A stretch of 63,433 nt of DNA, counting the filler, from Rozella allomycis CSF55 (lineage: Eukaryota): the NCBI GenBank assembly GCA_000442015.1. It is 8 parts of 8 records of this genome, joined end to end, with 100 filler letters (N's around TTAATTAATTAA, not from the genome) between each part and the next. Parts side by side here need not be neighbours in the genome. Positions count along the whole stretch, not along the records: positions 12,827 to 30,838 come from KE561004.1; 7 more parts are not named here. One strand, 5' to 3'. Positions 1-59,944 of this stretch are shown piece after piece (the stretch's first letter is position 1; each line of letters opens with the position of its first letter). The notes beneath the pieces were generated by a model, which saw only the letters and a program-made list of their open reading frames with translations, did not search any database and was not told the DNA's origin. Both the position numbers and the translations under genes were made by a program.

Positions 1-29
1 TCGCTAGTAACCTGTCCACTCTGGACCCA

Positions 30-1531: not shown

Positions 1532-1540
1532 CCCTCCCTA
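1532..1540 (-). promoter_or_regulatory. Polypurine tract (TAGGGAGGG)
   Basis: Purine-rich run abutting the TG start of the 3' LTR on the minus strand. Confidence 0.8.
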
Positions 1541-9338: not shown

Positions 9339-10151
9339 ATGAAGTGTGAAACTCCCAAGCCGCTAGCAAAATATGGAAGGCCGCCTTTCACGCTCACAAG
9401 CACAATTCTTGACTCCTTTGGTGCCGAAGGTCTTCGATATCTTTTACGTGACGATTTCAAACCTCCGGAAGTCCCTGTTTTACTAAACGTTCCCGCTGCT
9501 CCCGTTCCGCTAAAAGCCAACGACAATAACAAGCTGCAAGTTTACCAAAGGGTTGACAAATCTATGGTCATGTTAAATCTATGAACAACGAAGCTCAGGA
9601 GAAGTANCAAGCCGCCTTTCACGCTCACAAGCACACAATTCTTGACCTCTTTGGTGCCGAAGTTCTTGGATATCTTTTACTTGACGATTTCAAACCTCCG
9701 GAAGTCCCTGTCTTACTAGACGTTCCCGCTGCTCCTGTTCCGCCAAAAGCCAACGACAGGGACTATGCTAACAAGCTGCAAGTTTACCAAAAACGTTGCC
9801 AAATCTATGGTCATGTTAAATCTATGAACAACGAAGCTCAGGAGAAGTATGAAAAATATTTTACAGATCAAGAAAAAGCCTTCTCTTTGTTGAAGAATTG
9901 TTTTCTTACGTGATAATGCTCCTAAGACTGTTCGTGAAGCCTTTAGTTTGTATGAGAGTGTATTTAAGGCAAAAGAATTATCTGGAAATGATTTAATTAG
10001 TTGGTTAAGAGACTTAATGCAAATCCCTTTAAAGAAAATTAGGCGCGATGACCCTGGTGAAATTCATAAATTTGTTCAAAGTTTGGTTTCAAACGCAAGC
10101 ATATTTCGAGAACTAATGAAAGAAGATATAGTTGAAACTAAAAAGAAGTAA
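9339..10151 (+). pseudogene. gag-like ORF remnant (two overlapping copies)
   Basis: Duplicated DFKPPEVPVL..YQ segment joined by N; Pro-rich then helical region typical of LTR gag; ends inside a solo-LTR-like repeat. Confidence 0.35.
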
Positions 10152-10265
10152 ACGTTAAAGGTAATTTATTGAATTTATGCTGAGTATATATATGAGTGAT
10201 AAATTAATTAGCGAATTTCCAATAATTAATTAAATTAATTGGAAAATAATGTAATATTCTTGACA
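10139..10265 (-). repeat. ~127-bp solo-LTR-like dispersed repeat (also 10463-10589; partial at 27713-27760 and 30939-31009)
   Basis: Starts TGTCAAGAAT on the minus strand; the same sequence occurs on three different contigs in different contexts. Confidence 0.6.
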
Positions 10266-10913
10266 TGCACCGGTATTAGACCTAGACGTGAGCTGAGGGA
10301 ATGAAGTCGAGGAACGTGACGAGCTTTAGTAAATAGATCGCTGAGCATTCTTTGACTTTCACAAAAAGTTACATGTATAGTTCGATTTTAATNATTTGTT
10401 CAAAGTTTGGTTTCAAACGCAAGCATATTTCGAGAACTAATGAAAGAAGATATAGTTGAAACTAAAAAGAAGTAAACGTTAAAGGTAATTTATTGAATTT
10501 ATGCTGAGTATATATATGAGTGATAAATTAATTAGCGAATTTCCAATAATTAATTAAATTAATTGGAAAATAATGTAATATTCTTGACATGCACCGGTAT
10601 TAGACCTAGACGTGAGCTGAGGGAATGAAGTCGAGGAACGTGACGAGCTTTAGTAAATAGATCGCTGAGCATTCTTTGACTTTCACAAAAAGTTACATGT
10701 ATAGTTCGATTTTAATGCGGCTGCCTAATAATATGATATGCAATGTCCAAATGCTTCAATCTATTTTGATGCGTACCAGATTNGAAAATCAGGAGTTACC
10801 CTCAAAAAACGCAGTACACGCTTTAGACATAACCAATGAATATTTCTTGGAGAATCTTGGAAACGAGAAAGATGGTTAAGTGCAAAACATATATCAGGCC
10901 TTGTCTTGATAGC

Positions 10914-11013
10914 NNNNNNNNNNNNNNNNNNNNNNNNNNNNNNNNNNNNNNNNNNNNTTAATTAATTAANNNNNNNNNNNNNNNNNNNNNNNNNNNNNNN
11001 NNNNNNNNNNNNN
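10914..11013. other. Artificial contig linker N-TTAATTAATTAA-N (also 12727-12826, 30839-30938, 32338-32437, 56050-56149, 59845-59944, 61164-61263)
   Basis: Identical 100-nt N/stop-codon spacer repeated seven times. Confidence 0.98.
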
Positions 11014-13218
11014 CATTTACCTTAAAACATAATCAGAGTCATATTAATAAAGTAATTTAAGTAATAAAAATAAAATCTTGTGTCGTCTTAACAGATTGTT
11101 TAAAAATAATCCATGGCTGAGGCGGATAGATATCTGGATATCTCGGACAATAAATAGGATGTAGAGCAACAGAGTGAAAATCAAAGCAAAATTCTTCATA
11201 TAATGCTTGCCTTGATATACTTTATGCATTGCGCTCAANCAGTTGGAAGTTAGAATAATGAGAAAGACATTAATTATTATTTATGTATTTTTGGACCGGT
11301 CAATATAGAGAACTGCTTGCCTGTTCAAACAGGGCAAACGATATCGTTGATAGCATTTTGCGGATATTTCAACGTGTTCTTGAAGTACCTGTTGTGTAAA
11401 AATTCAATATCCTACCGTGTCGCTACCCCGACGCTTGGCAAACCCTTTGGATGTTTCTATTAGACTCTTAGCNCAGACATTAATTAATATTTATGTATTT
11501 TTGGACCGGCCAATAAAGAGAACTGCTTGCCTGTTCAAACTGGGCAAACGATATCGTTGATAGCATTTTGCGAATATTTCAACATGTTCTTTAAGGATCT
11601 GTTGTGTTAAAATTTAATATCCTACCGTGTCACTACCCCGACGCTTGGCAAACCCTTTGGATGTTTCTATTAGACTCTAAGCTGCGCTAAGCGTCTTTGA
11701 TTTCCACGACATCATTTTGTCGACCGCTTACCTTGTCATTTTCGGCTCAATTGTACCGAGATCTTTAAAGTAGGCCCTAAAATCAATTGACCCGATCTGA
11801 AAAGAATTTATCGTTCCCGAATTGACCGGGAGATGGTGTGATCTTCAGCCATAATCATATTTTGAATTTAGAAACCAGTATCTGAGTGTACCAATAACGA
11901 AGGTTTCCCCGCTGCAGTCACTGCCCTTCCACGTCCATATTGGACCCTAAGCAATAATCTTTCATATAACCTTATTGTCAACTAAACATTCCCTAGCTTA
12001 CCGCAAAATAGATGACTAAGACTACCCATAAATATTCCGTGTTTTTTCTGAACATATGCAAGCAGCAGAAATCGGGACAAACACTTTCTAATGCCTCCCG
12101 GAAAGACGGTCGCGGCCTTACTAAACTATTGGGATAGCATCATCTATGATTTCCAACTGGCATCCGATTTCATTGTCCCCACGATATAGGTACATGCCAC
12201 TTACCTGTAATGTACGGGTTTCCCAAAGTTGAGACGACAAATTACCCGAAGCAAATACACGGACATCGAAAATTAATAGTCCTTTTACTGTTTACGCTTT
12301 TTCTTCAGTCTGGCCATTGCATGCGTACATATCCACGACATTTGCATAAATTATCGCTTCATTTGACAGTTTCTGTTTGAATTTCAAGCAAACAGAAGGA
12401 ATCTTTNATTTGACAGTTTCTGTTTGAATTTCAAGCAAACAGAAGGAATCTTTATAGAAATATTAATATCCTTACTTGAATCATCAGAAATGTTGTTTCA
12501 CCTGTATTCACAGTCACGAGATGTACATCTTACTCTAATGTTGAGTGCGAAAAATATCATCTGGCCTCGGATAATAGCTGTCCCTGTTACATTCAAGGAT
12601 GTGTAAAGTTCAAAATCCACCAAGGGTTAACTTTATCGCGCCTTTCATGCCTACATTTCTGCAAATTTAGATTATCTACCCTGGCTCTGGACTCTGGATG
12701 TTAGGATAAGAGTGCATTTTTTCAATNNNNNNNNNNNNNNNNNNNNNNNNNNNNNNNNNNNNNNNNNNNNTTAATTAATTAANNNNNNNNNNNNNNNNNN
12801 NNNNNNNNNNNNNNNNNNNNNNNNNNAAGTCGGGGTAATGAAGAAGTATGATTGGGGGATGCTGGGATGCACCAAAATGTCACATGTCACGTCAAATTTT
12901 ATGTACATTTGAGAGGGTTAGCGTTTAGTCTAAATATATCTTTCTACTTAGAATATTTGAAAAAAATNGCGATTCGCAAATCTTAAATTATACCAGTAAT
13001 CTACAAAACATTTCGCTTAAAAGTTAAACGACTCTAAAACTTTCATAAGCCGGCTCAACAACCTGAAAGTTATGACGAGATATCAAGCAAGTAGACTTCC
13101 TCACAATTTATTTACTTCGTGTAATTTATTGTCGACCATTGTACCCGGAATAAATAGACCTAGAATACTGAATAGCTAAAGCTTAGTCGCATTCCTATAA
13201 ATGGGGTAGATATATTTA

Positions 13219-13258
13219 CACCCGGGGTGTGCTTCACCCCTGGCAAAAAAGTCGGGGT
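13219..13258 (+). repeat. Left terminal inverted repeat with palindrome CACCC-G-GGGTG
   Basis: CACCCGGGGTGTGCTTCACCCCTGGCAAAAAAGTCGGGG versus the reverse complement of the right end, CACCCCGGGTGTGGCACGCCCCTTTAGAAAACCGGG. Confidence 0.55.
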
Positions 13259-13666
13259 AATGAAGAAGTATGATTGGGGGATGCTGGGATGCACCAAAAT
13301 GTCACATGTCACGTCAAATTTTATGTACATTTGAGAGGGTTAGCGTTTAGTCTAAATATATCTTTCTACTTAGAATATTTGAAAAAAATCACATTTGTCA
13401 TCAACATTTAAAATCAAAATATTGATACACTGTATTAAATTTAGCATAAATAAAAAGTCCATGGCCTTGTATAATACTCTTTGTAACTTTATCTTTGAAT
13501 ATACAATACATGTGATATCCTTTATGAATTTATACCTTGTAAATCTCTGACTTTATTTAGCCAAAAGTCGACATCCAAATATGGAAACCTTTTGTCTAAA
13601 ATACATGCGGCATCATATTATTGAACTCCTATATTACCTTAAATAGTCCGCCCCTGACTTAACCAC

Positions 13667-14238
13667 ATGTCTGCGCCAAACTTTATGGACAGTTTGTTGA
13701 CTGAGTATAGCGCACATATGATATGTTTTTTCGCAAGTTTAAAAGATATGAGTCTACATGGTTCGGTTTTAAAGGAGCGAATTTTAGCCGAATCTAAGCT
13801 TTTCCAATACGCACTTGGTGTTTCCAGATCAGGTCAAGACAAAATACAACTTGCGTGTAGCAAGACACGTTATCTAATTGTCCTGCTATCGTGCGTATAA
13901 ATTGCACTCAAAACGGTTGGGGTATTGGCGCACATGTTTTTGAACATAATCATCCTCCATCAAAGGATGTTAACTTTGAAGTATTTGATATTCAAGAATC
14001 TTTACGAGCGTTTGTGCAAGCACACATGAACTCCTTTCGACAAGGTTCTTCCCTTATCTACAATATCGCAAAAAGTCCGATCCTTAAGAACTAAAATATT
14101 TGGCCCAATTGGAAATGAATATGAAAAGCTTATTAAGAATTTAGAAGACGAAAAAGACAAAACCGTTTCAATATTTGTTGATCGTGACTCTCTTGGTACT
14201 GTATTGAATTTTATGTGGGCGGACAAACGTGCGCTCGA
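13667..14238 (+). pseudogene. MULE transposase N-terminal fragment, copy A
   Basis: Near-identical to 14564-15166; C..CPA..W..EHNH FAR1/WRKY-like domain; internal deletion near 14040. Confidence 0.75.
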
Positions 14239-14241
14239 NCT

Positions 14242-14510
14242 TTAGTCTAAAAATATCTTTCTACTTAGAATAATTTTTAAAAATTCACATATGTCGTCAA
14301 TATTTAAAATCAAAATATTGATACACTGTAATAAATTTAGCATCATTAAAAAGTCCACTGCCTTGTCTAATTCACTTTGTAATTTTTTCTTTGTATATAC
14401 AACACATGTGATTTTCTTTATGAATTTATTACCTTGTAAATCTCTGACTTTACTTAGCCAAATATCACCATCCAAATATGGAAACCTTTTGTCTAAAATA
14501 CATGCGGCAA
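14242..14510 (-). CDS. Small divergent ORF of unknown function upstream of the transposase
   Basis: ~77-90 codons open here; a frameshifted homolog at ~13350-13610 carries mostly conservative changes. Confidence 0.3.
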
Positions 14511-14563
14511 CATATTATTGAACTCCTTTTTTACCTTAAATAGTCCGCCCCTGACTTAACCAC

Positions 14564-16470
14564 ATGTCTGCGCCAAACTTTATGGACAGTTTGTTGACTG
14601 AGTATAGCGCACATATGATATGTTTTTTCGCAAGTTTAAAAGATATGAGTCTACATGGTTCGGTTTTAAAGGAGCGAATTTTAGCCGAATCTAAGCTTTT
14701 CCAATACGCACTTGGTGTTTCCAGATCAGGTCAAGACAAAATACAACTTGCGTGTAGCAAGACACGTTATCTAATTGTCCTGCTATCGTGCGTATAAATT
14801 GCACTCAAAACGGTTGGGGTATTGGCGCACATGTTTTTGAACATAATCATCCTCCATCAAAGGATGTTAACTTTGAAGTATTTGATATTCAAGAATCTTT
14901 ACGAGCGTTTGTGCAAGCACACATGAACTCCTTTCAAATCCATACCGCCCTAAAAACTATGTACCCTGACAAGGTTCTTCCCTTGTCTACAATATCGCAA
15001 AAAGTCCGATCGTTGAGAACTGAAATATTTGGCCCAATAGGAAATGAATATGAAAAGCTTATTAAGAATTTAGAAGACGACAAGGACAAGACCGTGTCAA
15101 TTTTTGTTGAACGTGATTCTCTTGGTACTGTATTGAATTTTATGTGGGCGGACAAACGTGCGCTCGACATTGTTGCCTCCCCTAAGTGTGATATTTTGTT
15201 AATTTATACCACTTATAAAGTAACAAAGTTTGATCAGTCTTTAGCGCTTTTTTTGTCAATGGACAAGCATGGAAATTATTACATAGTTTGTGCTGCAATG
15301 ATCGCGTTGGAAGATGCAAACACCTTTTAATGGAGTTTTCATAATCTTATGGAGTGTTGCCCTTCTTTTTCTTTGTCCACCACAGTAGTCTTCACTGAAA
15401 ATGACGCAGCAATGACTTTGGCATTTGAAAGTTTTCCGTTCGTAGCGCATTATTTAGATTTGTTCCATTTTATACAATGTCGTGATCGTCACCTACGTTT
15501 TAAGATGCGAAATTATCACACATTCAAAACAAGAATATGTAAATTGGTGAAGTCGGAGGAATCATCTATTGTCACATTGGAACTCGATAAATTGAAACGC
15601 GATCACGCTACTGCCGGTCGCCAATATATAAACACATATGTTAAACCAATACTACCTAAAGTGTGTGTTAAAGACCGAAGCCAGTACTTTGATTTAGGTC
15701 AGTCAGGAAGAAATTCTTGTGAGGATTTAATAGATTGGTCAAAAGTTATGGAGCTAACTTTAACTCACCTGCCTTATCCATAGTTCAAATTCATTCTGGA
15801 CTATATATTTGAAACGTACACCTACAAAAATCAGTGCCTTGTTGCTAAAACTCAAACATTGTTGAAAAGGAGTGACTTACGTGAAATGGAAAAGTCTCTC
15901 AAAATGTCCTTAGGAGTTTACGCTGAAACAAAGTTAATTAAACAATACGTAAATCTATTAGTAACACGCTAACCACATCAACTGACAACTGTTCTTTTGC
16001 AATAGTGGATTGCACAGGCCAAGGTTTTACTGTGCAAATCTATGACGATGCTACTTCCTTCAAGTGTTCGTGTGGCTATGTCCAGCGCAAAGTCATACCT
16101 TGCTGCATATTATATCGGTAAAACAAAAATTGGGCAAGCCGGTTACATACACTTATTGCATTAAACGTTGACATCTAGGTATCGAACCAATTACGTCCAC
16201 CTCCATTGAGGGCGCCACTACTACCACGCAACGCGCGCACACAACTATTCGCCACTATCACTTACAATTACTGTCATAACATAAACTTATCTACAACAAA
16301 ACGTACCACGACCTTGATGCGATTAAAGCTGCTACAGACGGATATCGTACTACCTTCACCTCCATTTTTCCAGGTACGCCCATTGATGGCCACAATGTGT
16401 CAACGGATCCGACTCTTCGAAAGGATAAAGTAAGACGACTTCGCAAACATTTAGCAAAAAAGAAACAATA
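14564..16470 (+). pseudogene. Mutator/MULE DDE transposase with SWIM finger, copy B (disrupted)
   Basis: EHNH domain, LLIYTTYKV (catalytic D to Y), VFTEND, HYLDLFH, NSCE, CSCGY..PC; stop at 15328 and frameshifts. Confidence 0.85.
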
Positions 16471-16486
16471 AATATTAATTGTTTTA

Positions 16487-16925
16487 TTAAAATATCGGCT
16501 TACGATCGTTAAGACCATTTTGATTTTTGCGTTTAAATGCGTATGTACAGTCTTCGGGATAGATTATGTACAAATCACCGTTGCTCACATTAACACCAAT
16601 GCCATTGCCATGAGGGCTTTCATCGTACCATATGCCACACACCTTGTCATTAATCTTGTTTTTAAAATGAGCTAATAATGCATCAATAATGTTATTGTCA
16701 TTTTCCAAATTTAACTTGCAACTTATTTGTTTTAGTACCTTCTTCGGATTGCATGATAAGGAAGCGCAGTGAATTGGAACATGACCGTCAATCTCGCATG
16801 AATGTATTATGCTGCTGGACTCTGGAAAAGTTATAAGAGTCCTTCGAAAATTCTCTAAATTATATGACATTGTCGATTCTAAACTTTGTTTGCCGAAACC
16901 AAACTTTTTAGATTTCCAAAGTCTG
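16487..16925 (-). CDS. PrimPol-like protein, C-terminal half (second copy, cut by N join)
   Basis: RLWKSKKFG... near-identical to 18259-18690; retains the 5 bp missing from the other copy. Confidence 0.75.
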
Positions 16926-16926
16926 A

Positions 16927-18243
16927 NGGCGCTAGACATATTTGCCTCCACTAAGTGTGATATTTTATTAATTGACACAACGTATAAAGTAACAAAGTTT
17001 GATCAGTCTTTAGCGCTTTTATTGTCAATGGACAAGCATGGACATTATTACATAGTTTGTGCTGCAATGATCGCGTTGGAAGATGCAAACACTTTTCAAT
17101 GGATTTTTCATAATCTTATAGAGTGTTGCCCTACTTTTGCTTTGTCCACGACAGTAGTCTTCACTGACAATGACGCAGCAATGACTTTGGCATTTGAAAG
17201 TTTCCCGTTCGTAGCGCATTATCTAGATTTGTTCCTTTTTACAATGTCTTGATCGCAACCTACGCTTTAAGATGCGTAATTATCAAACATTCAAAACGAG
17301 GATATGTAAATTGGTGAAGTCAGACGAATCATCCATTGTCACATTGGAACTCGATAAATTGAAACGGGACCACGCGGTTACAACTGCCGGTCGCCAATAT
17401 ATAGACACATACGTTAAACCTATACTACCTAAAGTGTGTGTTAAAGACCGAAGCCAGTACTTTGATTTAGGTCAGTCAGGAACAAATTCGTGTGAAGCAT
17501 TTAATAGAGTTGTCAAAAGTTATGGGGCTAACTTTAACTCCCCTGCCCTATCCATAATTCAAATTCTTGACTATATATTTGAAACGTACAGCTATAAAAA
17601 TCAGTGCCTAATAGCGAAAACGCAAACATTGTTGAAGAAAAGTGACTTAACTCAAATGGAAAAGTCTCTCAAATTGTCGTTAGGAGTTTACGCTGAAACA
17701 AAGTTAATTAAACAAATACGTAAGTCTATTAGTAACACGTTAACCACATCTACCGATAACGGTTCTTTTGCAATAGTGGATTGCATAGGCCAACGTTTTA
17801 CGGTTCAAGTCTATGACGATGTAGCTAGCTTCAAGTGTTCGTGTGGCTATTTTCAGCGCAAAGGCGTACCTTGCTGCCATATTATCTCGGTAAAACAGAA
17901 ATTGGGCAAGCCGGTTACATACACTGATTGCATTAAACGTTGGCATATAGGTGTCGAGCCAAGTGCGTCTATGTCCATTGAGGGCACCACTACCACCACT
18001 CAACGCGCGCACACAAATATTCGCCATTATCGCTTACAATTACTGTCATTACATAAACTTATCTACAACAAGACGTACCACGACCTTGATGCGATTAAAG
18101 CTGCTGCCGAAGGATATCGTACTACGTTCTCCTCCCTTTTTCCAGGTACGCCCCTTGATGTCCACAATATTTCAACGGATCCGACGCTTCGTAAGGATAA
18201 ATTAAGACGGCTTCGCAAACATTTAGGAAAAAAGAAACAATAA
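16927..18243 (+). pseudogene. Mutator/MULE DDE transposase with SWIM finger, copy C
   Basis: LLIDTTYKV, VFTDNDAAM, TNSCEAFN (D-D-E), CSCGYFQRKGVPCCH (SWIM), IKRWH; frameshift and stop near 17235-17252. Confidence 0.88.
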
Positions 18244-18258
18244 ATGTTAATGGTTTTA

Positions 18259-19411
18259 TTAAAATATTGGCTTACGATCGACAAGACCAACTTGATTTTT
18301 ACGTTTAAATGCGAATGTACAGTCTTCGGGATAGATTATGTACAAATCACCGTTGCTCACATTAACACCAATGCCATTGCCATGAGGGCTTTCATCGTAC
18401 CATATGCCACACACCTTGTCATTAATCTTGTTTTTAAAATGAGCTAATAATGCATCAATAATGTTATTGTCATTTTCCAAATTTAACTTGCAACTTATTT
18501 GTTTTAGTACCTTCTTCGGATTGCATGATAAGGAAGCGCAGTGAATTGGAACATGACCGTCAATCTCGCATGCATGTATTATGCTGCTGGACTCTGGAAA
18601 AGTTATAAGAGTCCTTCGAAAATTCTCTAAATTATATGACATTGTCGATTCTAAACTTTGTTTGCCGAAACCAAACTTTTTAGATTTCCATGAAGTTTTG
18701 ATTCGCGTTATACACTGCAACATCAAATAAGAAATGCAAATCTTCAACGTCGCGGTAAGGAATTAGTAGAGGCATGCGGCCAGTTTTCGAAAGAATATTA
18801 TGTACTCCTTGACCCGTCAACCCATCGTTTTCATATATTGGATATTCAACTTCATATAGTAAATTTATCAACCAACGCACCAGTGCCATACAATGTTCAA
18901 TGGAAGGGAACACAATGTCTGGATAGATCAAATGCAAACTAAATTTTTCTGGGCTGCATGCATCTAGAACAATAACATTGTCAACAATACGTTCTGCAGT
19001 TATTATTCCCATGGACTTCAATATTTCCGTAAGGTACCAATTGAGGCTACTAACCACCTTATCTGGCGTTACTAATTCTTTAAAAGTATCATTAACAGAA
19101 TCGTATACACAGTCAATATCAAGATAGAACTTTACAGGACATCCTTTGCGAATAATTTCATAGCAAGTCTTATTCTCTGCGCTCAAGGATGAGTAATAAT
19201 TGTAAAACGTTTCTAAATTTGTTGCACCAAATTTTCGAGCCCCAGACGAATTCACCTCCCTCCCTATTATCAAAGCGTCATCCAGTATATCCAGGGCACT
19301 TTTTAAGCATGTTTTGAGACTCCCCTGCCACGTGATGTCCGCTCGTAACTTTTTCAATTGAAAGAGCTCAATCGCTGACGGTTTAACCAAAGGTCTTTTG
19401 GAGTTTGACAT
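18259..19411 (-). CDS. PrimPol-clade archaeo-eukaryotic primase-polymerase (this copy has a 5-bp frameshift at ~18690)
   Basis: CYEII..PVKFYLDID (motif I), KFSLHLI (motif II SxH), FDVAVYNANQNF-RLWKS (motif III); no evident introns. Confidence 0.88.
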
Positions 19412-19526
19412 GAAATTATTCCGATATTTTGTCGGCGACTTTTATGATTCATCGGTAATTATTTTATTGGTCCCAACACATGCTTTTGTTCTTACTCTTG
19501 CTAATTTTAAAATTACCGGGCTTTTC

Positions 19527-20798
19527 ATGGGTAATAGAGGCCGACATTTTGTGATTAAACTATCTCACACCTCTAGCGATCAATCTATTGACGACCTTTA
19601 CTCTGTGGTACAGGAGGCAACAATGGCGCGCGTACGAGAGACACATAATTCCATCTTAGACCTAGAAGCTGTTGCAAGTACAAGTAGTAACGACGATTCT
19701 ATGCAACTATGCCTGATCGGATTCCTCGACGACGAGAATATGAAAAGCCTCTTTTTATCGTTTAAGAATACAAAACGAATTGGGAAGCACTTTACAAATG
19801 TTATGTTGGCACATAACATCGACGTACTTGATGTAAAGGCAAAAAAGGGAAAGTTGTCAGATCTCTCCTCAACATTTTGTTCTGATTGTGCCAACAATGT
19901 CTCGGTTATGTGCGGCTCTATCCCTTCAGCCAGATCATCTCGTGCATCATCCACTCATGCAATCACTATGATTCAGTTTTACCAACTAGCAAATGAGTAC
20001 AAATTTGTGGACGAAACAAGCCTCTATGCATTTATTCAACAGCACCTCTCCTCACCAGATCCTACTCTCCAAAGTAATGCCCTCAAGTTACAGCAATTTG
20101 TCAATAAGAATAGTTTTTCCAAAAGTATGAGAATACGAGTAGCAGAGGCAATTTGTTGGGGCAATGCGACCTATAAAGAACTCAGACGACAAAAATCAAG
20201 AATGCAATTACTAAGAGAGGCCTGTCCTCTTGACAGGCCATATGATGTAGACAATATTTACCGAATTTTACAGAATCATAATGTAGATATTACGCATTTT
20301 AAAAATGGTGTATTAAAGTACATTTTTGATGATGTTTCAAATGCGAAACAGCGATTGTGTATTATTGGGCCATCAAATACTGGTAAAAGCAGAATATTAC
20401 AAGGTTTATCTGAAATTTTAAACACTGAAACATTTATAAGTGAAAACACAGTTTACAAATTCAAACCCTTGCTTAATGCGGAGCTAATTGTCATTCCGGA
20501 GTTACAGAAACTTCTTGACTCTCGTGTTCTCAAAGAAACTGCGCTATTAGCTTTGCTATCTGAGTCCAGCTCGTTAAATATTCCAGTAAGCAGTGACGGC
20601 ACGCAGCACAAACTGAAGCAAGACCTCCCAATTTTCATTATGAACCAGTCATCACGTTTTTTATCTTTCAGTGACCTTCCTTCGCTAAATAACCGGTTAA
20701 GCATTGTTCGATTTAGCGGCCCACCATTTTCGAGCAACTTACAGATTCCAATCAGTGGCAAGGCACTCGCGTATTTTCTGTTACGTGATCAACAATAA
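19527..20798 (+). CDS. Superfamily 3 helicase (viral Rep/NS1/E1-like), intact ORF
   Basis: LCIIGPSNTGKS (Walker A), LIVIPEL (Walker B), PIFIMNQ (motif C), LNNRL (Arg finger); likely ATG at 19527, matching the start of the second copy. Confidence 0.88.
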   Translation: MGNRGRHFVIKLSHTSSDQSIDDLYSVVQEATMARVRETHNSILDLEAVASTSSNDDSMQLCLIGFLDDENMKSLFLSFKNTKRIGKHFTNVMLAHNIDVLDVKAKKGKLSDLSSTFCSDCANNVSVMCGSIPSARSSRASSTHAITMIQFYQLANEYKFVDETSLYAFIQQHLSSPDPTLQSNALKLQQFVNKNSFSKSMRIRVAEAICWGNATYKELRRQKSRMQLLREACPLDRPYDVDNIYRILQNHNVDITHFKNGVLKYIFDDVSNAKQRLCIIGPSNTGKSRILQGLSEILNTETFISENTVYKFKPLLNAELIVIPELQKLLDSRVLKETALLALLSESSSLNIPVSSDGTQHKLKQDLPIFIMNQSSRFLSFSDLPSLNNRLSIVRFSGPPFSSNLQIPISGKALAYFLLRDQQ

Positions 20799-20878
20799 AT
20801 GAAACTATATATTAAATATCTAACGCACGCATGTGCAGACCCCTCAGACCTTCCCGGTACCCCCCGCCTTTTTAAGAC

Positions 20879-21480
20879 CCTACCTTCCGCACACACGTAA
20901 TTGATGCTTTCTTATTATCTCAATATCAATGATTATATTCCCTATCTTTGACTGCACCACTCAACCAGGCGACATACATAAGTGCGACCTGACACCCATC
21001 TTTCAAATCCGTCGCCTCAAACCTATCTAAATTATTATAATTAGATATTGGAAACAACATTGTTTAAGGTGACATCAATCTCATAGTCAATTTGTTATAC
21101 TGCTGTCACTAGGCACTTTGTACAAAGTATACCACGTTTTTGAGATCCTACCTTCCGCACACACGTAATTGATGCTTTCTTATTATCTCAATATCAATGA
21201 TTATACTCCCTATCTTTGACTGCACCACTCAACCAGGCGACATACATAAGTGCGACCTGACACCCATCTTTCAAATCCGTCGCCTCAAACCTATCTAAAT
21301 TATTAGATTTAGATATTGGAAACAACATTTTTTAAGGTGACATCAATCTCATAGTCAATTTGTTATACAGCTGTCACTAGGCACTGTGTAAAAAGTATAC
21401 CACGTTTATGAGATCCTACCTTCCGCACACATGTAATTATTCCTTTCATATTATCTCAATATCAATGATTGCATTCTTTT
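20879..21480. repeat. 268-bp tandem repeat, ~2.2 units
   Basis: cctaccttccgcac recurs at 20879, 21147 and 21415. Confidence 0.9.
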
Positions 21481-21697
21481 TTTCTGACTGTACATTTCGT
21501 CCAAGCGACAGGCAGCAGTGACTTGCTATCACGATTCCTACTTTGTCATTATCATTTGGTAATACGACTTTCATAGATTTTGACACATAACTATCTCGCC
21601 CAGCGTATCCAAATAAAAGAGCCGTCATTTTTATAGTTTTTGTTTAAAAGAGTGACCCTGGCTCTCTTTTTAATGAGGAAAACAGTTTACAGNGTTC

Positions 21698-22957
21698 ATG
21701 GGTAATAGAGGTCGGCATTTTGTGATTAAACTATCCCACACCGCTAGCGATCAATGTATTGACGACCTGTACTCTGTTGTACAGGAGGCGACAATGGCGC
21801 GTGAACGAGAGACACATAATTCCATCTTGGATCTAGAAGCTGTTGCAACTACACGTAGTAACGATTCATTGCAACTATGCCTGATTGGATCCCACGACGA
21901 CGAGAAAATGAAAAGCCTCTTTATATCGTTTACGAATACAAAACGAATAGGTAAGCACTTTACAAATGTTATGTTGGCACATAAAATCGACGTACTTGAT
22001 GTAAAGGCAAAGAAGGGAAAGTTGTCAGATCTCTCCTCAACATTTCGTTCTGAGTGTGCCAACAATGTCTCGGTTATGTGCGGCTCTATCCAATCAGCCA
22101 GATCATCTCGCGCATCATCCACTCATGCAATCACAATAATTCAGTTTCACCAAATAGCGAATGAGAACAAATTTGTGGACGAAACCAGCCTTTATGCATT
22201 TATTCAACAACACCTATCCTCACCAGATCCTACTCTCCAAAGTAATGCCCTCAAGTTACAGCTATTTGTCAATAAGAATAGTTTTTCAAAACGTATGAGA
22301 ATACGAGTAGAGGAAGCAATTTGTTGGGGCAATGCGACCTATAAGGGCAAAAATCAAGAATGCAATTACTAAGAGACGCCTGTCCTCTTGACAGGCCATA
22401 TGATGTAGACATTATTTACCGCATTTTACAGAATCATAATGTTAATATTACTTATTTTACAACTGTCATATTGAGGTACATTTTTGATGACGTATCAAAT
22501 GCAAAAGAGCGATTGTGTATTATTGGCCCATCAAACACTGGTAATAGCAGAATATTACAAGGCATATCTGAAATTTTAAATACTGAAACTTTTATCAGCG
22601 AAAACACAGTTTACAAATTCAAGTCCCTTCCTTAATGCGGAGGTAATTGTCATTCCAGAATTACAGAAACTACGTGACTCTCGTGTACTCAAAGAAACTG
22701 CGCTATTAGATTTACTTTCGGAGTCCCGCTAATTAAATATTCCAGTAAGCAGTGACGGCACGCAGCACAAACTGAAGCAAGACCTCCCAATTTTCATTAT
22801 GAACCCGTCAACACGTCTTATATCTTTCAGTGACCTTCCATCGCTAAATAACCGGTTAAGCATTGTTCGATTTAGCGGCCCCCCTTCTTCGAGCAACTTA
22901 CAAATTCCAATAAGTGGCAAGGCGCTCGCGTATTGCCTGTTACGTGATCAAAAATAA
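21698..22957 (+). pseudogene. Second SF3 helicase copy, frameshifted
   Basis: Closely similar to 19527-20798; deletion near 22345, Walker A GNS instead of GKS, frameshift near 22625. Confidence 0.88.
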
Positions 22958-23058
22958 ATGTAACTGTACACTAAATATCTAATGTACGCACACATTTTTA
23001 CTCTCAAAAGAACACACTCTTCAGCCTCCCGGTAATCCATCACCTCCTTTTTTTAGAG

Positions 23059-23465
23059 CCTACCCTCCGCATTCACCTCATTTATGCTTTCATATTATCT
23101 CAATATCAATGATTGAATTCCCTATCTTTGACTGCACCACTCGACCAAGCGACATACATAAGTGCGAAATGACACCCATCGTTCAGATCCTTGGCCTCAA
23201 ACCTATCTAAATTATTATATTTATATACTGGAAACAACATTGTTAAAGGTGACTACAATCTCATAGTCAATTTGTGATACAGCTGGCACTAGGCACTTTG
23301 TACAAAGTATACCACGTTTATGAGATCCTAACTTCCGCACACACGTAATTGATGCTTTCATATATATTATTTCAATATCAATGGTTATACTCCCTATCTT
23401 TGACTGCACCACTTGACTAGGCAACATACATAAGTGCGACCTGACACCCATCTTTCAGATCCTCG
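23059..23465. repeat. Second array of the 268-bp repeat, ~1.5 units
   Basis: Unit starts at 23059 and 23327; truncated by hAT sequence. Confidence 0.85.
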
Positions 23466-23977
23466 CAATATATTTGATGATGAGGATTTCATTGCACGAT
23501 TCAATAACAAGCCGGCAAAACTGAGAAAGGTTAAGGAAATTGTTGATGAAAAGAATTTCTGGATGGAATGCCGGAGGGCCATCACGTTGATTCATCCACT
23601 CAATGACGCTCTAGCTTTATTTATACGTGATGATTGCTCTTTCAGTCTTGTGTATGAGTCATTCTTGAAGTTACTTAAACATCCTGCTTATACACAGCCA
23701 TCTGCAGATGTGTCTGGTTCGGAGAGAAATGCAATTTTGGAGTTAATCAAAGAGCGTTGGAATTTTGTTTATTCAAAGTCGCTGGGCTTTGCTTACTTGC
23801 TGGATCAGACCAAGAGCACTGCTGCCGTTGTTGGCCGTGATTTACAGGACACGATTGAGCAGGCAGTCACGATAATGGAAAGAATGGGGCTCCCGACAGG
23901 AATTACAACAAACGAATTTGGAGCGGCAATTGTCCGTCTTCATTATGAAAAGGCAAGCTGGACTGATGAGGAGAAAC

Positions 23978-26527
23978 GGAGATCATCATTCCCCCGCACC
24001 ACTAAAGACATTTCCCCGCACCACCAAAAAAAATTGAATTTCCCCGCACCACCGAGGGAAACCCGGATTTTTTGCATTTCCCCGCACCATCTTCTATTTC
24101 TCCGCACCACCTAGAAAACCCATAAGCGATCTCCGTCACGACCCCTTACCTTTATATATTTTCTGAATACGATTTGTTGCATGTGTGTGCATTGTGAAAT
24201 TCTACATACTTCGTAATAAAATTTTTTTAAAATATTTTAATCCCTAAATGCACCCTGGTCTCAAAATTTTTATGCCACCTTTTGGATTATGCAAAGAGGG
24301 AAACGCAGAAAATTTCCATGGTGCAAGAGAACAACTTATAAATGAGCTTAAGCTCGCGCCATTTGTTAACGGGGGTGGAGCTCGAAAGAGATTAAAATGT
24401 CTCGAGTGCGGTGAAAACTCGGCAGAAAGAAAGTAAAGATACAATTTAACTACAAAAGAATGTTTGATTGTCGATGTGGAAAAACTTGTTCTGTGAGGTA
24501 CAAGTTGGTCCTTTGCAATTGCAAAAAGTACTATTTTTACCGTAATGGAGAACAGCATGACCGTACGATACAATGCACTAGAAGCGTTCGTAAGATTGAA
24601 GAAGACATTGTATTGTTGGTTCAAAACAACCCCGTTGAGTCCAACCGAAAGATACGAAAACTAATGGAAATTGAAAAAAACATGGAAGAATAAGACGTTT
24701 ATTAAAATCAGAACAAATTAGTTCCTTGAAAAATCGAGTTAAACGCAAGTTAGGCCACACTAATCAGATTGGTGATCTAAGTAAACCTTGTTGTGTTTCT
24801 AAAATAGAAAAAAAAATTAATAATCTACCCGACGACATATTAATTTTGGCATCCGAAAATGAAGAAGGTGAAGTTTATCTTGGAGCAGGTACAGATGCCG
24901 GTCCTTTTTTAGTCGGTGGTTTTACCAACATATCCGCTCTACGTAGGTATGCTGAAGCAAACACAACCTTGAATGAGAAAATAATAATGCATTTTGATGA
25001 AACATTTAAAGTCTCCGAAATAAGGTAACATAAATTTTAAAGCTTAATTAGATATCAAGTCATTGTGTTCGGGTTGTCAGACATAAATGGACAGTTCCAT
25101 GTTGCTGGTTTGGAAGTTTCATCTCACCGAAGGGCAACGGAATACAAGACATTAATGTCAAAATTTGCGGATGTTTTAATGCAGCATGAACAAATACCAT
25201 TCCAACCTTCATTTTTAATGTCAGATTGCTCAAGCGCAATTTCCAATGCGGTTATTGCAGCGATTGAAGAGGGTTCAGAAACCCCGCCGTTAGTTCTTAT
25301 GTGCTCGTTTCATGTCATGAAGGCTATTAAAGCCAAATTTGACGAATATCCCATGCAACATGAGGCTAAAGTAGATCTGTGGATCACCCAAGTGAAGCCT
25401 ATTCTAAATGAAATGACAAAACCAAGATGCGATGGGGAATTTAGCCAAAAATCTAAGTTGCTGAAAAGAATTGTCTTAAACAACATGAATTTCGCTTTTT
25501 GGAAGTATTGGGATGAAACATGGTTGTCTAATCCTGTTTGGAGTTATTGGCAAACCTACCATACTCCACCAGGCTATGCGTGTACCAATAATGCTGTTGA
25601 ATCCTTTAACAAATTCTTTAAACGAGACTATACTTTAAAGAAGCATCACCCAATAGGAATGGTCATGGGTCTCTGCATTGAAGCATTAAGAGACTTCACG
25701 AATGCTGAAAGTCAACAAAAACCATTCATGACTAAAGGAACTATGTGAAGCAAGATCAGGACAAAGTGTTGGAGTTATGTAAAAAAATGGAGATTTTGAG
25801 AAGCAATGCTCACAGCGCTACATTGAAGTACAAGTCAAAGGAATGGAGATGCACAGTGAATCTAGAAACTCAAGCGTGTTCTTGCCGCACATACTTGTAT
25901 TGGGCTAAATGAGTTCATATTCCACTAGCGTACTTCCTGTTAAAGAGAGAAAGTCCAGATGGGGTTCCTGACATGCGCAAGTTAAGACCTCGCAAACAAA
26001 ACAAAAGCTTCCGATTCCTCTGGTGAAGAAGACAAAAATGCACCGAGAAATCGTAAGAAGGTTGTGCGAAGCAAGGCACTTCATTACGATTAAATAAATT
26101 CTTTTACAGAGTATTTATTTTGTTTTGTTTCTAATTTTTCAACCTTATGGGTTAAATATTAAAAGCATTATATCCCATACTTTATTAGGGAAGGGGTCCC
26201 TAATATGGTGGGATAAGGCCGCGACAGTTCTTCGTAACGGTTGACACCCATATAGCATACAACACCAGACGCAAGCATCTTAGCGTTAGCTTTCATACAC
26301 TCGTAGAGTGCTCTCATGCAATGGTAAGTGTTAAAAATATTTTATAAAGCAAAAAATTTTGGTCCGCAAGTACACCTTATGGGTTGTCCAGGTGGTGCGG
26401 GGAAATCTAATTTTTATTAAGGTGGTGCGGGGAAATAACAAATGGCGCGGGGAAATCTATTTCTTTCCAAGTTTTATTAAGGTGGTGCGGGGAAATGTCC
26501 AAAGTGGTGCGGGGAAATAATCTACCC
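23978..26527 (+). mobile_element. Mutator-like element with repeat-built TIRs and 9-bp TSD
   Basis: TIRs made of tttccccgcacc / ggtgcggggaaa repeats (23978-~24130, ~26375-26527); TSD aggagaaac / aggagaaaa; removing it restores the hAT frame DEEK-RRNNRYSPLQWW. Confidence 0.9.
24248..26093 (+). pseudogene. MULE transposase (intron-containing, degraded)
   Basis: MHFDETFK, LMSDCS, LMCSFHV, TNNAVESFNK, SWIM-like CSC..W..(stop)VH; tiny introns near 24432 and 25025. Confidence 0.85.
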
Positions 26528-26965
26528 AGGAGAAAAGGAGAAACAACAGGTATTCACCGCTGCAGTGGTGGTCACTACGAACAGACTTTCCACTGCTCCA
26601 GCCCCTCGCAAGACGCGTTTTGTGTACGCCGACATCTTCTGCTGCAAATGGGTGGTCATGGAGTATCCACGAATTCATACATTCAAAAAGAAGAAATAGA
26701 CTTTCTGCGGAAAAGGTTGAGAGACTGGTGTTTATTTACTCTAATATAGATGATACAGCAACGGACGATCACCTTTTATACATGCTACATCCAGAAGCGG
26801 AGATGAATGATGATTTGGACGAAGAAGACGAAGAAGTAGAATAGGCTTTCTATATGGCAATTAACTGACTAATAAAGTTAATTAACTGTTAATTAACTGT
26901 TAATTAACCGTTAGTAACCGTTATTAACGCACTAAGTTAATTATATTGTTATTAGTAGGCGTTAN

Positions 26966-27036
26966 AATTGTTGGATTTTTAAGTGTATATGTTGATGATT
27001 TGATTATTACAGGCGTCATAATTGAAGTAATTAAAA
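26966..27036 (+). pseudogene. Tiny copia RT fragment
   Basis: IVGFLSVYVDDLIITG (YVDD motif). Confidence 0.6.
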
Positions 27037-27334
27037 TTCATTCGATAGCAAAGATGTGATATACCGAGGTATTATTTTTTTTGAAATCATCAGCTCAAGC
27101 GGCAGACAGCAGTCACTTGCTACCACGATTCCTTATTTCTCATTTTCATTCGGTAATACAACATTAATAGTGTTTGACACTTTTAATCTCTNCTTGCCCA
27201 CATCAAAAATGGTTTCATTGCGAAATTAGAAAGAAAGGCTATGTCGTTCTGTCGCCTGACGTTGTTTCGTCTTTTGGCATAGACGTCGTCGCATTGAAAA
27301 ATCATATCCTGACATCAAATACTGACTTTGANGG

Positions 27335-28381
27335 GATGACCCTGGCTATTTATTCAATGAGGAAAAGTGTTTACAAAGAGAAGGTAGAGCGCAGACAAAT
27401 AAGGTTGGCAAATCAAAATATCGCGCAGACCCCGATAATAAAAAAAGGAAGCTGAGAGAGCCAAAGTTTATAAAGAACAAAAGAAGCCAGTTACAAAGTA
27501 TATAACGCAACGGATAAATCGTTAAAATTGCCCACCTTAAAATTTTTTCATAGTGAAATTAGAAAAATGGCTATGTCGTTCTGTCGCCTGACATAGTATC
27601 CGGTATCGTCTTTTGGCATAGATGTCGTCGCATTAAGAACTCATATCCTGAAATCAGATATTGACTTTGAACAAGTATTTAATTCGGAAAAAGATGCGTT
27701 TTTATTAAGCTCTAAAAAGAAGTAAACGTTAAAGGTAATTTATTGAATTTATGCTGAGTANTTATTAAGCTCTAGTGCAAAATTTAGAAATTCTTTCAAG
27801 TCCCCTCGGCAACAAGCACACCTAAATTTAAATGAGAAAGAAAAAGAATTTAATGACATTATAAAACATTATATCGACCCATATTACCATGGGTCGGAAT
27901 TTGTTGCTTTAAAGTCGTTGCCAGGCTGCCCTTCTCAAGCGGTACACCGGGATTATTTTGACTCAAGAAAATCATTAATGGACGAATACAAAGAGAATTA
28001 TCCAATCGGTGCAATTCTTGCTCTTGACGATCACACAAATCTTAACGTTTTCAAGGGTAGTCNTGAGGCGCATATCTGCCCTTTGAATCCGTCAATCATA
28101 TTTACTTTATCAAGTGGGGTGTATACACCCCGTGTGTAATTATCTTTAGCCACGTTTTCAAGGGTACAAAGAAAAGTATGATGAAAAAAATCGAGGTTGC
28201 AAAAGGAAGCATTATTTTCTTCAGTGTGTTTTTCCCACACTCCGGAGGGAGTTATGACAATGAAAATTTGAGGATCCAATTCCTCTGTTCGCATCAGAAC
28301 CACACAGTCGACACTGTGTCTACATCAATAGTAGACTTTGTTAATGAAGACATTTCAGACCCTGATTATGATATTAATTGA
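27335..28381 (+). pseudogene. 2OG-Fe(II) dioxygenase, PhyH-like fold (fragmented by N joins and an insertion)
   Basis: GYVVL N-terminal strand, SLPGCPSQAVHRDY (HxD), GAILALD, KGSIIFF..FPHSG (distal His), NLRI (Arg). Confidence 0.7.
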
Positions 28382-28739
28382 TAATAAATCTTTTATTTAA
28401 TTTATAACACTTCACTTTTTCCACATTGCAGTTCCTAACGTTTATAAATAACTTCTCTGCTAAGCCTCTGTCACAAAGACGTGACACTACCGTGACAAAA
28501 TTTCAACCAATAAGGTCCCGGTTTTCTAAAGGGGCGTGCCACACCCGGGGTGATTTTGTCGTTAGCCCTGTAAATGTACAAAGTAAACTCAATACCAAGG
28601 TGCGAGGACCTAGATGTCAAGATANATTTATAGCACTTCACTTTTTCTACATTGCGGTTCCTAATGTTATAAATAACTTTTCTGCTAAGCCTCTGTTACA
28701 AAGCCGTGACACTACCGTGACAAAATTTCAACCAATAAG

Positions 28740-28777
28740 GTCCCGGTTTTCTAAAGGGGCGTGCCACACCCGGGGTG
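28740..28777 (-). repeat. Right terminal inverted repeat (duplicate at 28515-28552)
   Basis: Ends in CACCCGGGGTG, followed by host-gene-like sequence. Confidence 0.55.
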
Positions 28778-28949
28778 ATTTTGTCGTTAGCCCTGTAAAT
28801 GTACAAAGTAAACTCAATACCAAGGTGCGAGGACCTAGATGTCAAGATAAAGTCGATGACGAGTCAGTGCATCAAATTTTGATTGAGTTCTATAAAATCG
28901 TCACATATTATCAACGCCACCAGCTATTGGAAGGGGGTGATCATAGGGA

Positions 28950-29112
28950 GTTCTGGGAGTTTTGTCTCAGATCTGAGTCACAATTAGTACCCTGAAATTC
29001 CATTGAAAGTCGTTAACATAAATCTGACATTCATTGTTGAAAATCTCGAACTATGTTGAAACTCACCCTAGGGGGTCCTGGAAGTCTTTTTGCAGATCAT
29101 AATCCAAACAGC
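28950..29112 (-). pseudogene. Paralogous fragment of the acidic membrane-protein gene at ~35710-35870
   Basis: Shares the stretch ttagtaccctga..ttccatt..cattgttgaaaatctcgaactatgttgaaactcaccct..ggtcctggaagtcttttt. Confidence 0.6.
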
Positions 29113-29559
29113 CTAATAATGTTCAACTAATGATAAATAACATTAATTGAATAGTCATTAATGTTAACAATTGATGGATCTCATACAAACTGTAAAATAC
29201 TATTAATAGAACAATCAACAAACCGAGTTAAAAGGCTCGGAGATATTAAATAAATCGTTCTCATAAGACTTACGTTGTATTCTTAACTAATTTTCTTTCT
29301 ATTTCACTAATTTAGATCTATAAAGCCGTAATGGTGAGCCTCATTACGACATAAATCACAATTTCCATGACATCTTCAAACTAATGTCAAAAAATGATAA
29401 AGATAGAAAACATTTGTTTTGTGTGAAGAAATTTATTTTATAAACTCCCCGTTCGATTTAACGAGCACTACGAGACTTGTCTTTGTTAAATGATTTCCGA
29501 TTTCATCATGTCATTATGTCATCATGCCATCATGAGCAATAATTTCTAGTGCAATTAAC

Positions 29560-29965
29560 AAAATGTAAAACAATTCTTAATTCTCTAGGTTTAACTCTAG
29601 TGTCACCCATTAACAATTTACCAACTCTGGCGTGACCGTTATGGGATGACAAACAGATGGCTTGATTATTCATATCACAAGGGTCAACCCTCAAGTAAAA
29701 GTTTTACAACTGCTGTATGACCGTTCTTGGATGCAATAGCATAATTATGTGGATCAACCCTAGAATCATTTAGTAAAACTTTAACAACTTCGGTATGCCC
29801 GATCTGTGATGCCAAACGTATGGCCAGATTACCCATATCACCTGGATCAGCACTAGAATCTTGGAGTAAAACTTTAAAAACTTTCTGCATGTCCATTCCG
29901 GGATGCCGACCAGATGGCCATATTATCTCTATCACCTGGATCAGCCCTAGAATATTTTAGTAAAT
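29560..29965 (-). pseudogene. Ankyrin-repeat protein remnant
   Basis: DP..NLAIRLASQIGHTEVVKVLLNDSRVDP..ASKNGHTAVVKLLL repeats with frameshifts. Confidence 0.75.
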
Positions 29966-30269
29966 CCATCTGCTGAAGGGTTTGGCTTTATGCTATTCGC
30001 CACATTAAGTAATTTTTGAGTGCAGCAATTTTTGAGTGCAGCTTGAGATAACATTCTTCCTATCTGTATCCCTAACCCTTATTGCACATAAATGCTCATT
30101 TCGTATATCAAAATGATTTTGTAAAAGTCAAGGAAAAATGTTTTATTGCAAAGTTAATAGGAAACATTACGGTTCACAGTGGGTTCCATAAAAAGTCTCT
30201 TAAACTACTGCCTTCTGTTAAAACCGCTATAAAAACATTTAGTTCTATGTATCAGATTGATAGATGACN

Positions 30270-30838
30270 GTACTAGAAACTGTTAAATATTCTTTGATAA
30301 GATTAAATTCATTTTTAATTTCATTGATATGGTCAAACATGTATATTTCGTTTGGTTGTCTGCTAATGAACTCTATTTTTTCCTTCCAACGTTCGAAAGC
30401 CTTTTCATCAAGAGTTTCCTTTTCAAGTTCTTTTTCCATTTTTGTAATCAGTTTTATTCGCAACATATTTGCCTTATTCTGTGCCTCATTCTGCACTTTT
30501 AGTGCCTCATTCTGCAACTTGAGTTCCTTCGTAGCCTCATCTATTAAATCCTTGTAGGCTTGAGCTTGAGCTAAAGTCGTACCTGTTTGTTGATTTTTCT
30601 CAAGTTTTTTTAATTTTTTAACATATTTTATTATATCTTGTTTTATTTTATCAATTTCAACCGGTTTACGTTCACTCACTTGTCGGTCTTCCAGTAGCCT
30701 TGCCAATAAGTCTGCTATTTTCTCTGGGCCTTTTTGTGCATCTATTTTNTGTCGGGCTTCCAGTAGCTCTGAAACGCTTTGCAATAAGTCTGCTATTCTC
30801 TCTGTGCCTTTTTGTGCATCTATCTTTCTTCTCTTGGA
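30270..30838 (-). CDS. Coiled-coil protein fragment, unknown function
   Basis: Open K/E/Q-rich helical frame broken by N joins. Confidence 0.4.
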
Positions 30839-31050
30839 NNNNNNNNNNNNNNNNNNNNNNNNNNNNNNNNNNNNNNNNNNNNTTAATTAATTAANNNNNN
30901 NNNNNNNNNNNNNNNNNNNNNNNNNNNNNNNNNNNNNNGTGATAAATTAATTAGTAAATTTCCATTTAATTAATTAAAATAATTGGCAATTAATTTAATA
31001 TTCTTGACATTAAATGATCGTAAAATAGATGAAATATTATTCATATAGAA

Positions 31051-59844: not shown

Positions 59845-59944
59845 NNNNNNNNNNNNNNNNNNNNNNNNNNNNNNNNNNNNNNNNNNNNTTAATTAATTAA
59901 NNNNNNNNNNNNNNNNNNNNNNNNNNNNNNNNNNNNNNNNNNNN

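Follow-up and report, generated by a model that had tools for sequence, protein, structure and literature searches.

Eukaryotic transposons equipped with replication genes of their own are, to our knowledge, few and comprise the Polintons, Teratorn and the Helitrons, the latter replicating by a rolling-circle mode. What defines Polintons/Mavericks and casposons is a DNA polymerase of family B, which in Polintons is protein-primed, together with an rve integrase or Cas1. In small DNA viruses, virophages, polinton-like viruses and integrated elements of archaea and bacteria, primase and superfamily 3 (SF3) helicase domains are usually fused, and integration is mediated by tyrosine or rve integrases, if an integrase is present at all. 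Fungal KDZ transposons carry TET/JBP dioxygenases dependent on 2-oxoglutarate and Fe(II) (2OG-Fe(II)), and Mutator transposons generate target-site duplications (TSDs) of 8-11 bp, typically 9 bp. Here, we analyze a stretch of 63,433 nucleotides from Rozella allomycis CSF55 (the window), in which a transposase of the Mutator-like element (MULE) type, a primase of the PrimPol clade and an SF3 helicase are encoded side by side on a single scaffold (12827-30838, 18,012 bp).

Teratorn has been described as a piggyBac transposon fused with a herpesvirus, including primase and helicase (PMC6431247, PMC5601938), and the combination of an archaeo-eukaryotic primase (AEP) and an SF3 helicase has been presented as a minimal replicon module (PMC5862659, PMC4642659). 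MULE as well as hAT transposons are listed for Rozella in a survey of fungal cut-and-paste elements (PMC5751038). The literature searched yielded no description of a MULE that encodes a primase or a replicative helicase, Repbase and the supplements of papers lying outside that search.

Gene content and organization of the Rozella element

Our analysis makes it probable that a MULE in R. allomycis has acquired a virus-like PrimPol/helicase module with which it moves as one unit, and that this unit makes up a family of ~7-kb elements. Between terminal inverted repeats (TIRs), the genes for the transposase, a convergently transcribed PrimPol and a divergently transcribed SF3 helicase are followed by a 268-bp repeat and possibly by a gene for a PhyH-like oxygenase. 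The data support that one unit bounded by TIRs and TSDs has multiplied, with transposase, PrimPol and helicase kept together under selection. Transposase, PrimPol, helicase and repeats reside on one gap-free contig (16928-21692), and a further single contig (14240-16926) again combines the transposase with the 3' end of the PrimPol gene.

The transposase is indeed of the MULE DDE/SWIM type, as an earlier note on this DNA had claimed. Pfam MULE (PF10551) matches at 16785-17252 with 48.8 bits (cut-off 27.6), SWIM is reached with 32.8 bits (cut-off 19.6) and ZSWIM1-3_RNaseH-like with 30.3 bits, and a Rozella paralogue, P0019 (564 amino acids), likewise unites MULE, ZSWIM RNaseH-like and SWIM domains. 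In the copy that we term version A, the 5' part of the gene (13667-14238, plus strand), detected by tblastn with residues 1-200 of P0019, stops at an N gap. Public contigs of four runs (X1, X2, X5 and X6) were aligned to positions 12827-29500, and since those of X1 and X2 join 14232 directly to 16935, the 5' part continues in the part encoding the DDE and SWIM regions (16929-18243, plus strand). The same note had described transposase and PrimPol as convergent, and this also holds: in both versions, 15 nt separate the stop codon of the transposase (18241-18243, plus strand) from that of PrimPol (18259-18261, minus strand).

The PrimPol gene (18259-19411, minus strand) specifies a PrimPol-clade AEP of ~385 amino acids, the full length of which is documented by the intact paralogue P0015 (376 amino acids). 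A profile built from the protein and its Rozella paralogues matches human PrimPol (7JK1/5L2X) with E values of 8e-12 to ~1e-11. AEP motifs I (DxD/E), II (SxH) and III (hD) align with those of the human enzyme, and Pfam AEP_C962R scores 24.3 bits (cut-off 23). The window copy and P0015 share a conserved C-terminal Cys/His cluster, and no profile match to the UL52-like zinc finger was obtained. The AlphaFold model of P0015, with a predicted local distance difference test (pLDDT) score of 38.9, was unusable. Relatives of PrimPol outside Rozella did not appear in a word-based search, nor were relatives of P0015 found in IMG/VR.

The intact gene for the SF3 helicase (19527-20798, plus strand) encodes 423 amino acids. 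Its start codon at 19527 and that of PrimPol at 19411 enclose a spacer of 115 bp (19412-19526), precisely the divergent arrangement noticed before, and a promoter role may be ascribed to this spacer. Foldseek lists AAV2 Rep40, papillomavirus E1 and B19V NS1 as top matches (E 5e-10 to 1e-7, probability 1.00) for a model that reaches pLDDT 76-96 in the C-terminal domain and is poor in the N-terminal part. The helicase has the SF3 AAA+ fold; of the motifs that go with it (Walker A, Walker B and motif C), G..GK is invariant and the others were read by eye. With Pfam PPV_E1_C, the window helicase scores 22.8, below the cut-off of 26.5; its paralogue P0010 exceeds the cut-offs for both PPV_E1_C (29.8 versus 26.5) and Parvo_NS1 (24.8 versus 20), and the relative P0003 exceeds that for PPV_E1_C and/or Parvo_NS1. 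A search of PDB with the single sequence yielded a P-loop match to ClpX only, and a profile search returned weak matches to Rep40/Rep68 (E 0.003-0.009) and E1 (E 0.06) amid general AAA+ matches. In the N-terminal domain, where Rep proteins of CRESS-DNA viruses have an HUH endonuclease, none of seven family members has a Pfam match at E values up to 10. A weak resemblance to CRESS-virus Rep domains was seen in the ESM Atlas, in which the clusters Viral_Rep, Gemini_AL1 and Rep_OBD come nearest to residues 1-225, with scores of 0.79-0.82 that lie under the 0.9 level.

Downstream of the helicase gene, a 268-bp tandem repeat was found as previously indicated; it occupies 20869-21470 with 2.2 copies (Tandem Repeats Finder score 1099, 95% matches) and recurs after the second helicase version at 23049-23436. 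Hairpins and iterons were sought in the repeat and in the 115-bp spacer and none were found. The repeat is followed by the start of the right arm of version A (21502-21692, plus strand), which is ~84% identical to 27096-27180 and 27337-27375: 21502-21586 matches the first of these segments at 83.5% and 21653-21691 matches the second at 84.6%. Public contigs likewise contain the 64-66 letters that separate both matches (joint 27181->27333); these contigs differ from the scaffold around N27192, N27332 and N28063. The right arm itself (27096-28381, plus strand) contains an open reading frame (ORF), broken at N28063, for a candidate PhyH-like 2OG-Fe(II) oxygenase. Its three pieces gave no Pfam match at E values up to 5; PhyH sets make up 29 of its 30 nearest named clusters in the ESM Atlas (score 0.90), and, of the HxD...H iron triad, the HxD motif and a distal His were read by eye. 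On this language-model lead, the ORF may encode a PhyH-like oxygenase. A dioxygenase had earlier been linked to the element through the match between the regions around 21500 and 27100; this match is real, and the link remains tentative.

Ends, target site and flanking repeat

The left TIR (13204-13240, plus strand) begins with GGGTAGAT, and the right TIR is located at 28756-28792 (minus strand), a second version of the end and its flank being present at 28531-28567. The TIR is 37 nt long and imperfect. When anchored at the ends, 23 of 37 positions of the left TIR agree with the reverse complement of 28756-28792, a value reached by none of 19,111 random pairs drawn from the scaffold, and a 12-nt core of the TIR occurs nine times versus 0.97 times expected. 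A 9-bp TSD, identical in eight of nine positions, reads CTATAAATG on the left (13195-13203) and CTGTAAATG on the right (28793-28801). The imperfect inverted termini reported in the earlier note are present, but the TSD puts the ends at 13204 and 28792 and not at 13219 and 28777. All three MULE hallmarks examined, i.e. transposase, TIRs and 9-bp TSD, are found. No second TIR or TIR-like sequence was detected beside the transposase stop, and for this reason we place PrimPol and helicase inside the transposon.

Evidence for an empty site comes from contigs of X5 and X6, which connect 13197 to 28796 with six letters in common, and from six X2 contigs, in which letters of the left flank immediately precede the right flank. 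As these contigs connect the flanks directly, copies of the flanking repeat without the insert exist. The flanks (12969-13203 and from 28802 onward, 28802-29109) are made up of a repeat with a contig depth ~30-fold that of single-version scaffold sequence. This repeat is the insertion target. The flanking repeat is also present at 35707-35866.

Interleaved versions, linkage and selection

Duplicated blocks in the region had originally been taken for two local copies of the genes. Single Ns at 14239, 16927 and 21693 border each of these blocks. Block 13346-14238 is paired with 14241-15167 and block 15160-16918 with 16929-18690, both pairs having a single N in between, and 19524-21283 is paired with 21695-23466, which begins just past N21693. 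True tandem copies were rejected on account of the single-N borders and the joint between 14232 and 16935 in public contigs, and because of this joint contig 14240-16926 is an alternative version instead of a tandem copy. The "two copies" are separate contigs of ~90% identity abutting at single Ns, where they have been interleaved as an assembly artefact. In contig B (14240-16926, plus strand), left arm, transposase and the 3' end of PrimPol recur as an alternative version of ~92% identity; it was interleaved by the scaffolder and has an in-frame stop at 15328-15330. Contig C (21694-26964) opens with a helicase version of 89% identity, its first part (21694-23436, plus strand) consisting of this second helicase and 268-bp repeats. 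Once the interleaved contigs are removed, one copy amounts to ~6.9 kb (13204-14238 plus 16929-21692 plus a right arm equivalent to ~27376-28792), and four genes and the repeat fill this length. The initial estimate of ~6-7 kb agrees with the ~7 kb per copy found here, whereas the span of 15.6 kb is inflated by interleaved contigs and a hAT remnant.

The 3' part of the PrimPol gene (18262-18687 versus 16480-16926) is 98% identical between versions with a synonymous divergence (dS) of 0.024, in contrast to ~90% identity and a dS of 0.25 for the adjacent transposase, which suggests gene conversion or chimeric phasing. Since the versions are 98% identical there, the assembler collapsed this part and left "bubbles" on either side. 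Triploidy has been reported for R. allomycis (PMC6784888). The versions may stem from divergent haplotypes or may be paralogues of one another; gene order is the same in each.

The window as a whole shows a comparable pattern. Near-exact or exact duplicated blocks flank single Ns throughout (10070-10716, 50406-51184 and others), and 10070-10392, which equals 10394-10716 at 100%, exemplifies an unmerged overlap. At other places in the window, this artefact will give rise to spurious tandem repeats and to interrupted ORFs. Linkers of the form N44-TTAATTAATTAA-N44 are located at 10914-11013, 12727-12826, 30839-30938, 32338-32437, 56050-56149, 59845-59944 and 61164-61263, so features on opposite sides of a linker are not genomic neighbours.

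Linkage of the genes was also observed in other assemblies. A 5,122-bp contig of a 2018 single-cell assembly carries genes for RKP17830 (MULE, 99% identity) and RKP17833 (helicase, 98%), three accessions apart, and a 10,068-bp contig of the same assembly carries those for RKP19592 (MULE, 70%) and RKP19594 (PrimPol, 78%). A contig of 3,673 nt from X5, in which the MULE-PrimPol(-helicase) linkage recurs, contains both genes at ~86%. Moreover, Rozella has paralogues of all three genes at 45-54% identity (P0015/P0016, P0002/P0010 and P0021), which, judged by sequence, would fit co-divergence of the unit.

Comparison between the versions gives ratios of nonsynonymous to synonymous divergence (dN/dS) of 0.24 over 314 codons of the transposase (Fisher P 6e-10) and of 0.22 over 417 codons of the helicase (Fisher P 8e-13). 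Both genes have diverged under purifying selection. Relative to the single-version parts of the scaffold, contig depth is ~30-55x in the terminal regions and 2-8x in the genes. Summed depth corresponds to 2-8 gene-bearing copies and far more copies of the terminal ~180 bp, these being rough numbers for which the baseline was assumed from exact-match contigs at 23428-26944. The difference in depth between termini and genes suggests that short derivatives sharing the ends of the element are present.

Relatives of the helicase

Among 1.84 billion representatives, an exhaustive HMMER search retrieved only nine proteins related to the helicase, of which three stem from Rozella, one (P0003) is 36% identical and four, with lengths of 532-610 amino acids, are 27-30% identical. 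One of the latter four, P0005, is encoded on a metagenome contig of 5,557 bp (L001) with an exact terminal repeat of 123 nt, which implies a circle of 5,434 bp. Along its length (1-5557), L001 encodes a 570-amino-acid SF3 helicase protein, an arginine-rich capsid-like ORF and an ORF of ~770 amino acids with a class 3 lipase domain, and it may represent an undescribed group of small circular DNA viruses. Scanning JGI metagenomes recovered L001 alone and nothing further, IMG/VR scans with two helicase alignments yielded no relatives, and the helicase had no match in a word-based search. PHROGs likewise gave no match for the helicase, PrimPol, the capsid-like ORF of L001 or P0005. The helicase family is almost unpopulated and ties Rozella to uncharacterized small circular virus-like genomes.

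Weighing of alternative explanations

A Rep-like SF3 helicase and a PrimPol could also be the remains of an endogenized small DNA virus or plasmid that lies beside a MULE, or was invaded by one, and was spread by segmental duplication or in triploid haplotypes. Such an origin is in accordance with the location of P0005 on an implied circle of 5,434 bp that also has an arginine-rich capsid-like ORF, with the common flank of the right-end versions, with the triploidy reported for Rozella (PMC6784888) and with MULEs nested in endogenous viruses of Halocafeteria, as described in a preprint (bioRxiv 10.64898/2026.07.28.741278). However, PrimPol and helicase are enclosed by the TIR and a 9-bp TSD for which an empty site exists, the stops of transposase and PrimPol are 15 nt apart without a TIR between them, and linkage is retained at 70-78% protein identity on another contig. 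Furthermore, dN/dS values of 0.22-0.24 would not be expected for dead resident copies, and four genes and the repeat fill the ~7 kb, no capsid gene being recognized among them by Pfam. We consider a resident viral or plasmid fragment improbable. Less probable still is a capture as in Pack-MULEs, by which PrimPol and helicase would be passive cargo with no part in propagation. Gene capture is known for MULEs (PMC6431247), and among solved structures the primase is closest to the cellular human PrimPol; yet Pack-MULEs carry gene fragments and rarely whole genes (PMC6431247), whereas two complete genes are arranged here on one divergent spacer. The helicase, in addition, is under purifying selection between copies, lacks a cellular family (nine matches among 1.84 billion) and has a viral SF3 fold. 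That the neighbourhood of these genes is an assembly chimera of unrelated repeats appears very unlikely. Roughly a dozen joins at single Ns, where contigs overlap or are misplaced, do occur in the span, and public contigs contradict the scaffold at 27181-27333, 27331-27762 and 28060-28170, but the core (transposase 3' part, PrimPol, helicase and repeats) is one gap-free contig and is reproduced at 98-99% protein identity on the 5,122-bp single-cell contig and on a third contig.

Several observations weigh against a MULE family that moves together with a PrimPol/helicase module. The transposase and PrimPol of version A are frameshifted (near 17240 and near 18688, respectively), version B carries a stop and frameshifts, and the helicase of version C is frameshifted; as the copies seen are decayed, with frameshifts or stops in every version, the family may no longer be active. 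Both right-end versions share the same flank and, in view of this and the reported triploidy, some of the "copies" may be haplotypes or segmental duplicates and not products of transposition. No single contig or read covers the element from end to end, and the right arm in the scaffold comes from another version, since its identity to the end of contig A amounts to just 84%. For the 3' part of PrimPol, dN/dS is 0.72 (P 0.66), and it is without a signal of selection because the versions are 98% identical. Finally, neither palindromes nor iterons are evident in the 268-bp repeat, and no DNA polymerase domain, family B included, was detected with Pfam in any ORF of 13204-28792.

Possible mode of propagation

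For the MULE with its PrimPol/helicase module, we tentatively propose, leaning towards doubt, that the module replicates the element. A small DNA virus or a plasmid would have been the source of the PrimPol/helicase pair as a replication module. Opening of the element, perhaps at the 268-bp repeats as a candidate origin, would fall to the helicase and priming to PrimPol, and the element, either excised or still integrated, would then be copied by polymerases of the host. Copy number would rise before reinsertion, with the MULE transposase cutting and pasting the whole unit. Rather unlikely in our judgement is the more far-reaching possibility that eukaryotic transposons have arrived at self-replication by a third route, on which a MULE with a captured minimal viral replicon (PrimPol, Rep-like SF3 helicase and a repeat-type origin) would amplify as an excised episome or through over-replication in situ and would reinsert by means of its DDE transposase.

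The earlier note had envisaged either a mobile element that replicates its own DNA or an endogenous virus that integrates via a MULE transposase. Of the former, a TIR/TSD-bounded unit with MULE transposase, PrimPol and SF3 helicase stands; because it has no dedicated DNA polymerase, the element is not self-synthesizing in the sense of Polintons or casposons. As to the latter, Pfam revealed no capsid or virion gene domain in the ORFs of the element, a search by which a divergent capsid could be missed. With no capsid or other virion gene recognized in this way, the element does not qualify as an endogenous DNA virus (polinton-like, virophage or CRESS-like).

Nested and neighbouring sequences

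In version C only, the repeats are followed by the C-terminal half of a hAT transposase (23434-26844, plus strand; Pfam Dimer_Tnp_hAT 50 bits), which is split by a nested TIR element of 2,551 bp (23977-26527). The nested element has an exact 8-bp TSD, AGGAGAAA, inverted repeats I2-I5 and several subterminal ATTTCCCCGCACCACC repeats. Its ORF (24675-25748) is MULE-like with 21.4 bits, below the cut-off, and significant similarity to the main transposase was not found. The right end of the nested element is GGGTAGAT in reverse complement. Three matches of this pattern were counted versus 0.81 expected, and three were reached in six of 100 shuffles; the end common to nested and main element may be due to chance.

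Beyond the element, an ankyrin-like coding repeat with a period of 94 nt is located at 29600-29965, and the sequence adjoining it has a contig depth of thousands versus ~60. Elsewhere in the window, a Copia-type long terminal repeat retrotransposon (1863-6078, minus strand) encodes gag, integrase and an SH3-like domain.

Comparison with known systems

With MULEs and Pack-MULEs, the Rozella element shares the MULE DDE transposase with its SWIM finger, the TIRs, the 9-bp TSD and, probably, short derivatives that have the same ends. The cargo of Pack-MULEs consists of gene fragments, whereas the Rozella element possesses a complete two-gene replication module. The pairing of an AEP primase with an SF3 helicase is common to small DNA viruses, virophages, polinton-like viruses and integrated elements of archaea and bacteria. 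In contrast to these viral and plasmid modules, the Rozella pair is encoded by two divergent genes inside a MULE, and its primase is closest to eukaryotic PrimPol. Unlike the TET/JBP dioxygenases of KDZ transposons, the candidate oxygenase, itself unconfirmed, resembles PhyH. Polintons and casposons are similar in that part of their own replication machinery is combined with an integrase or transposase; the Rozella element differs by relying on PrimPol, SF3 helicase and MULE transposase and by lacking a family B DNA polymerase.

A MULE that carries a primase-polymerase and a replicative helicase would, if our reading is true, join integration and replication modules in a new way and would imply that cut-and-paste DDE elements beyond piggyBac can recruit viral replicons. 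With ~7 kb and four genes, it would also offer a small, tractable system for the effect of primase and helicase on the dynamics of transposon copy number. Like Teratorn, the element is a cut-and-paste DDE transposon enclosing replication genes of the virus type. Teratorn, however, spans ~180 kb with ~90 genes, among them those for polymerase and capsid, whereas the Rozella element has ~7 kb, neither polymerase nor virion genes and a transposase of another superfamily. In its working, it may most resemble a miniature Teratorn; if the third route considered above were true, it would be a miniature, polymerase-less counterpart of that element and, in a fungal lineage that diverged early, a living link that stands between transposons and small DNA viruses.

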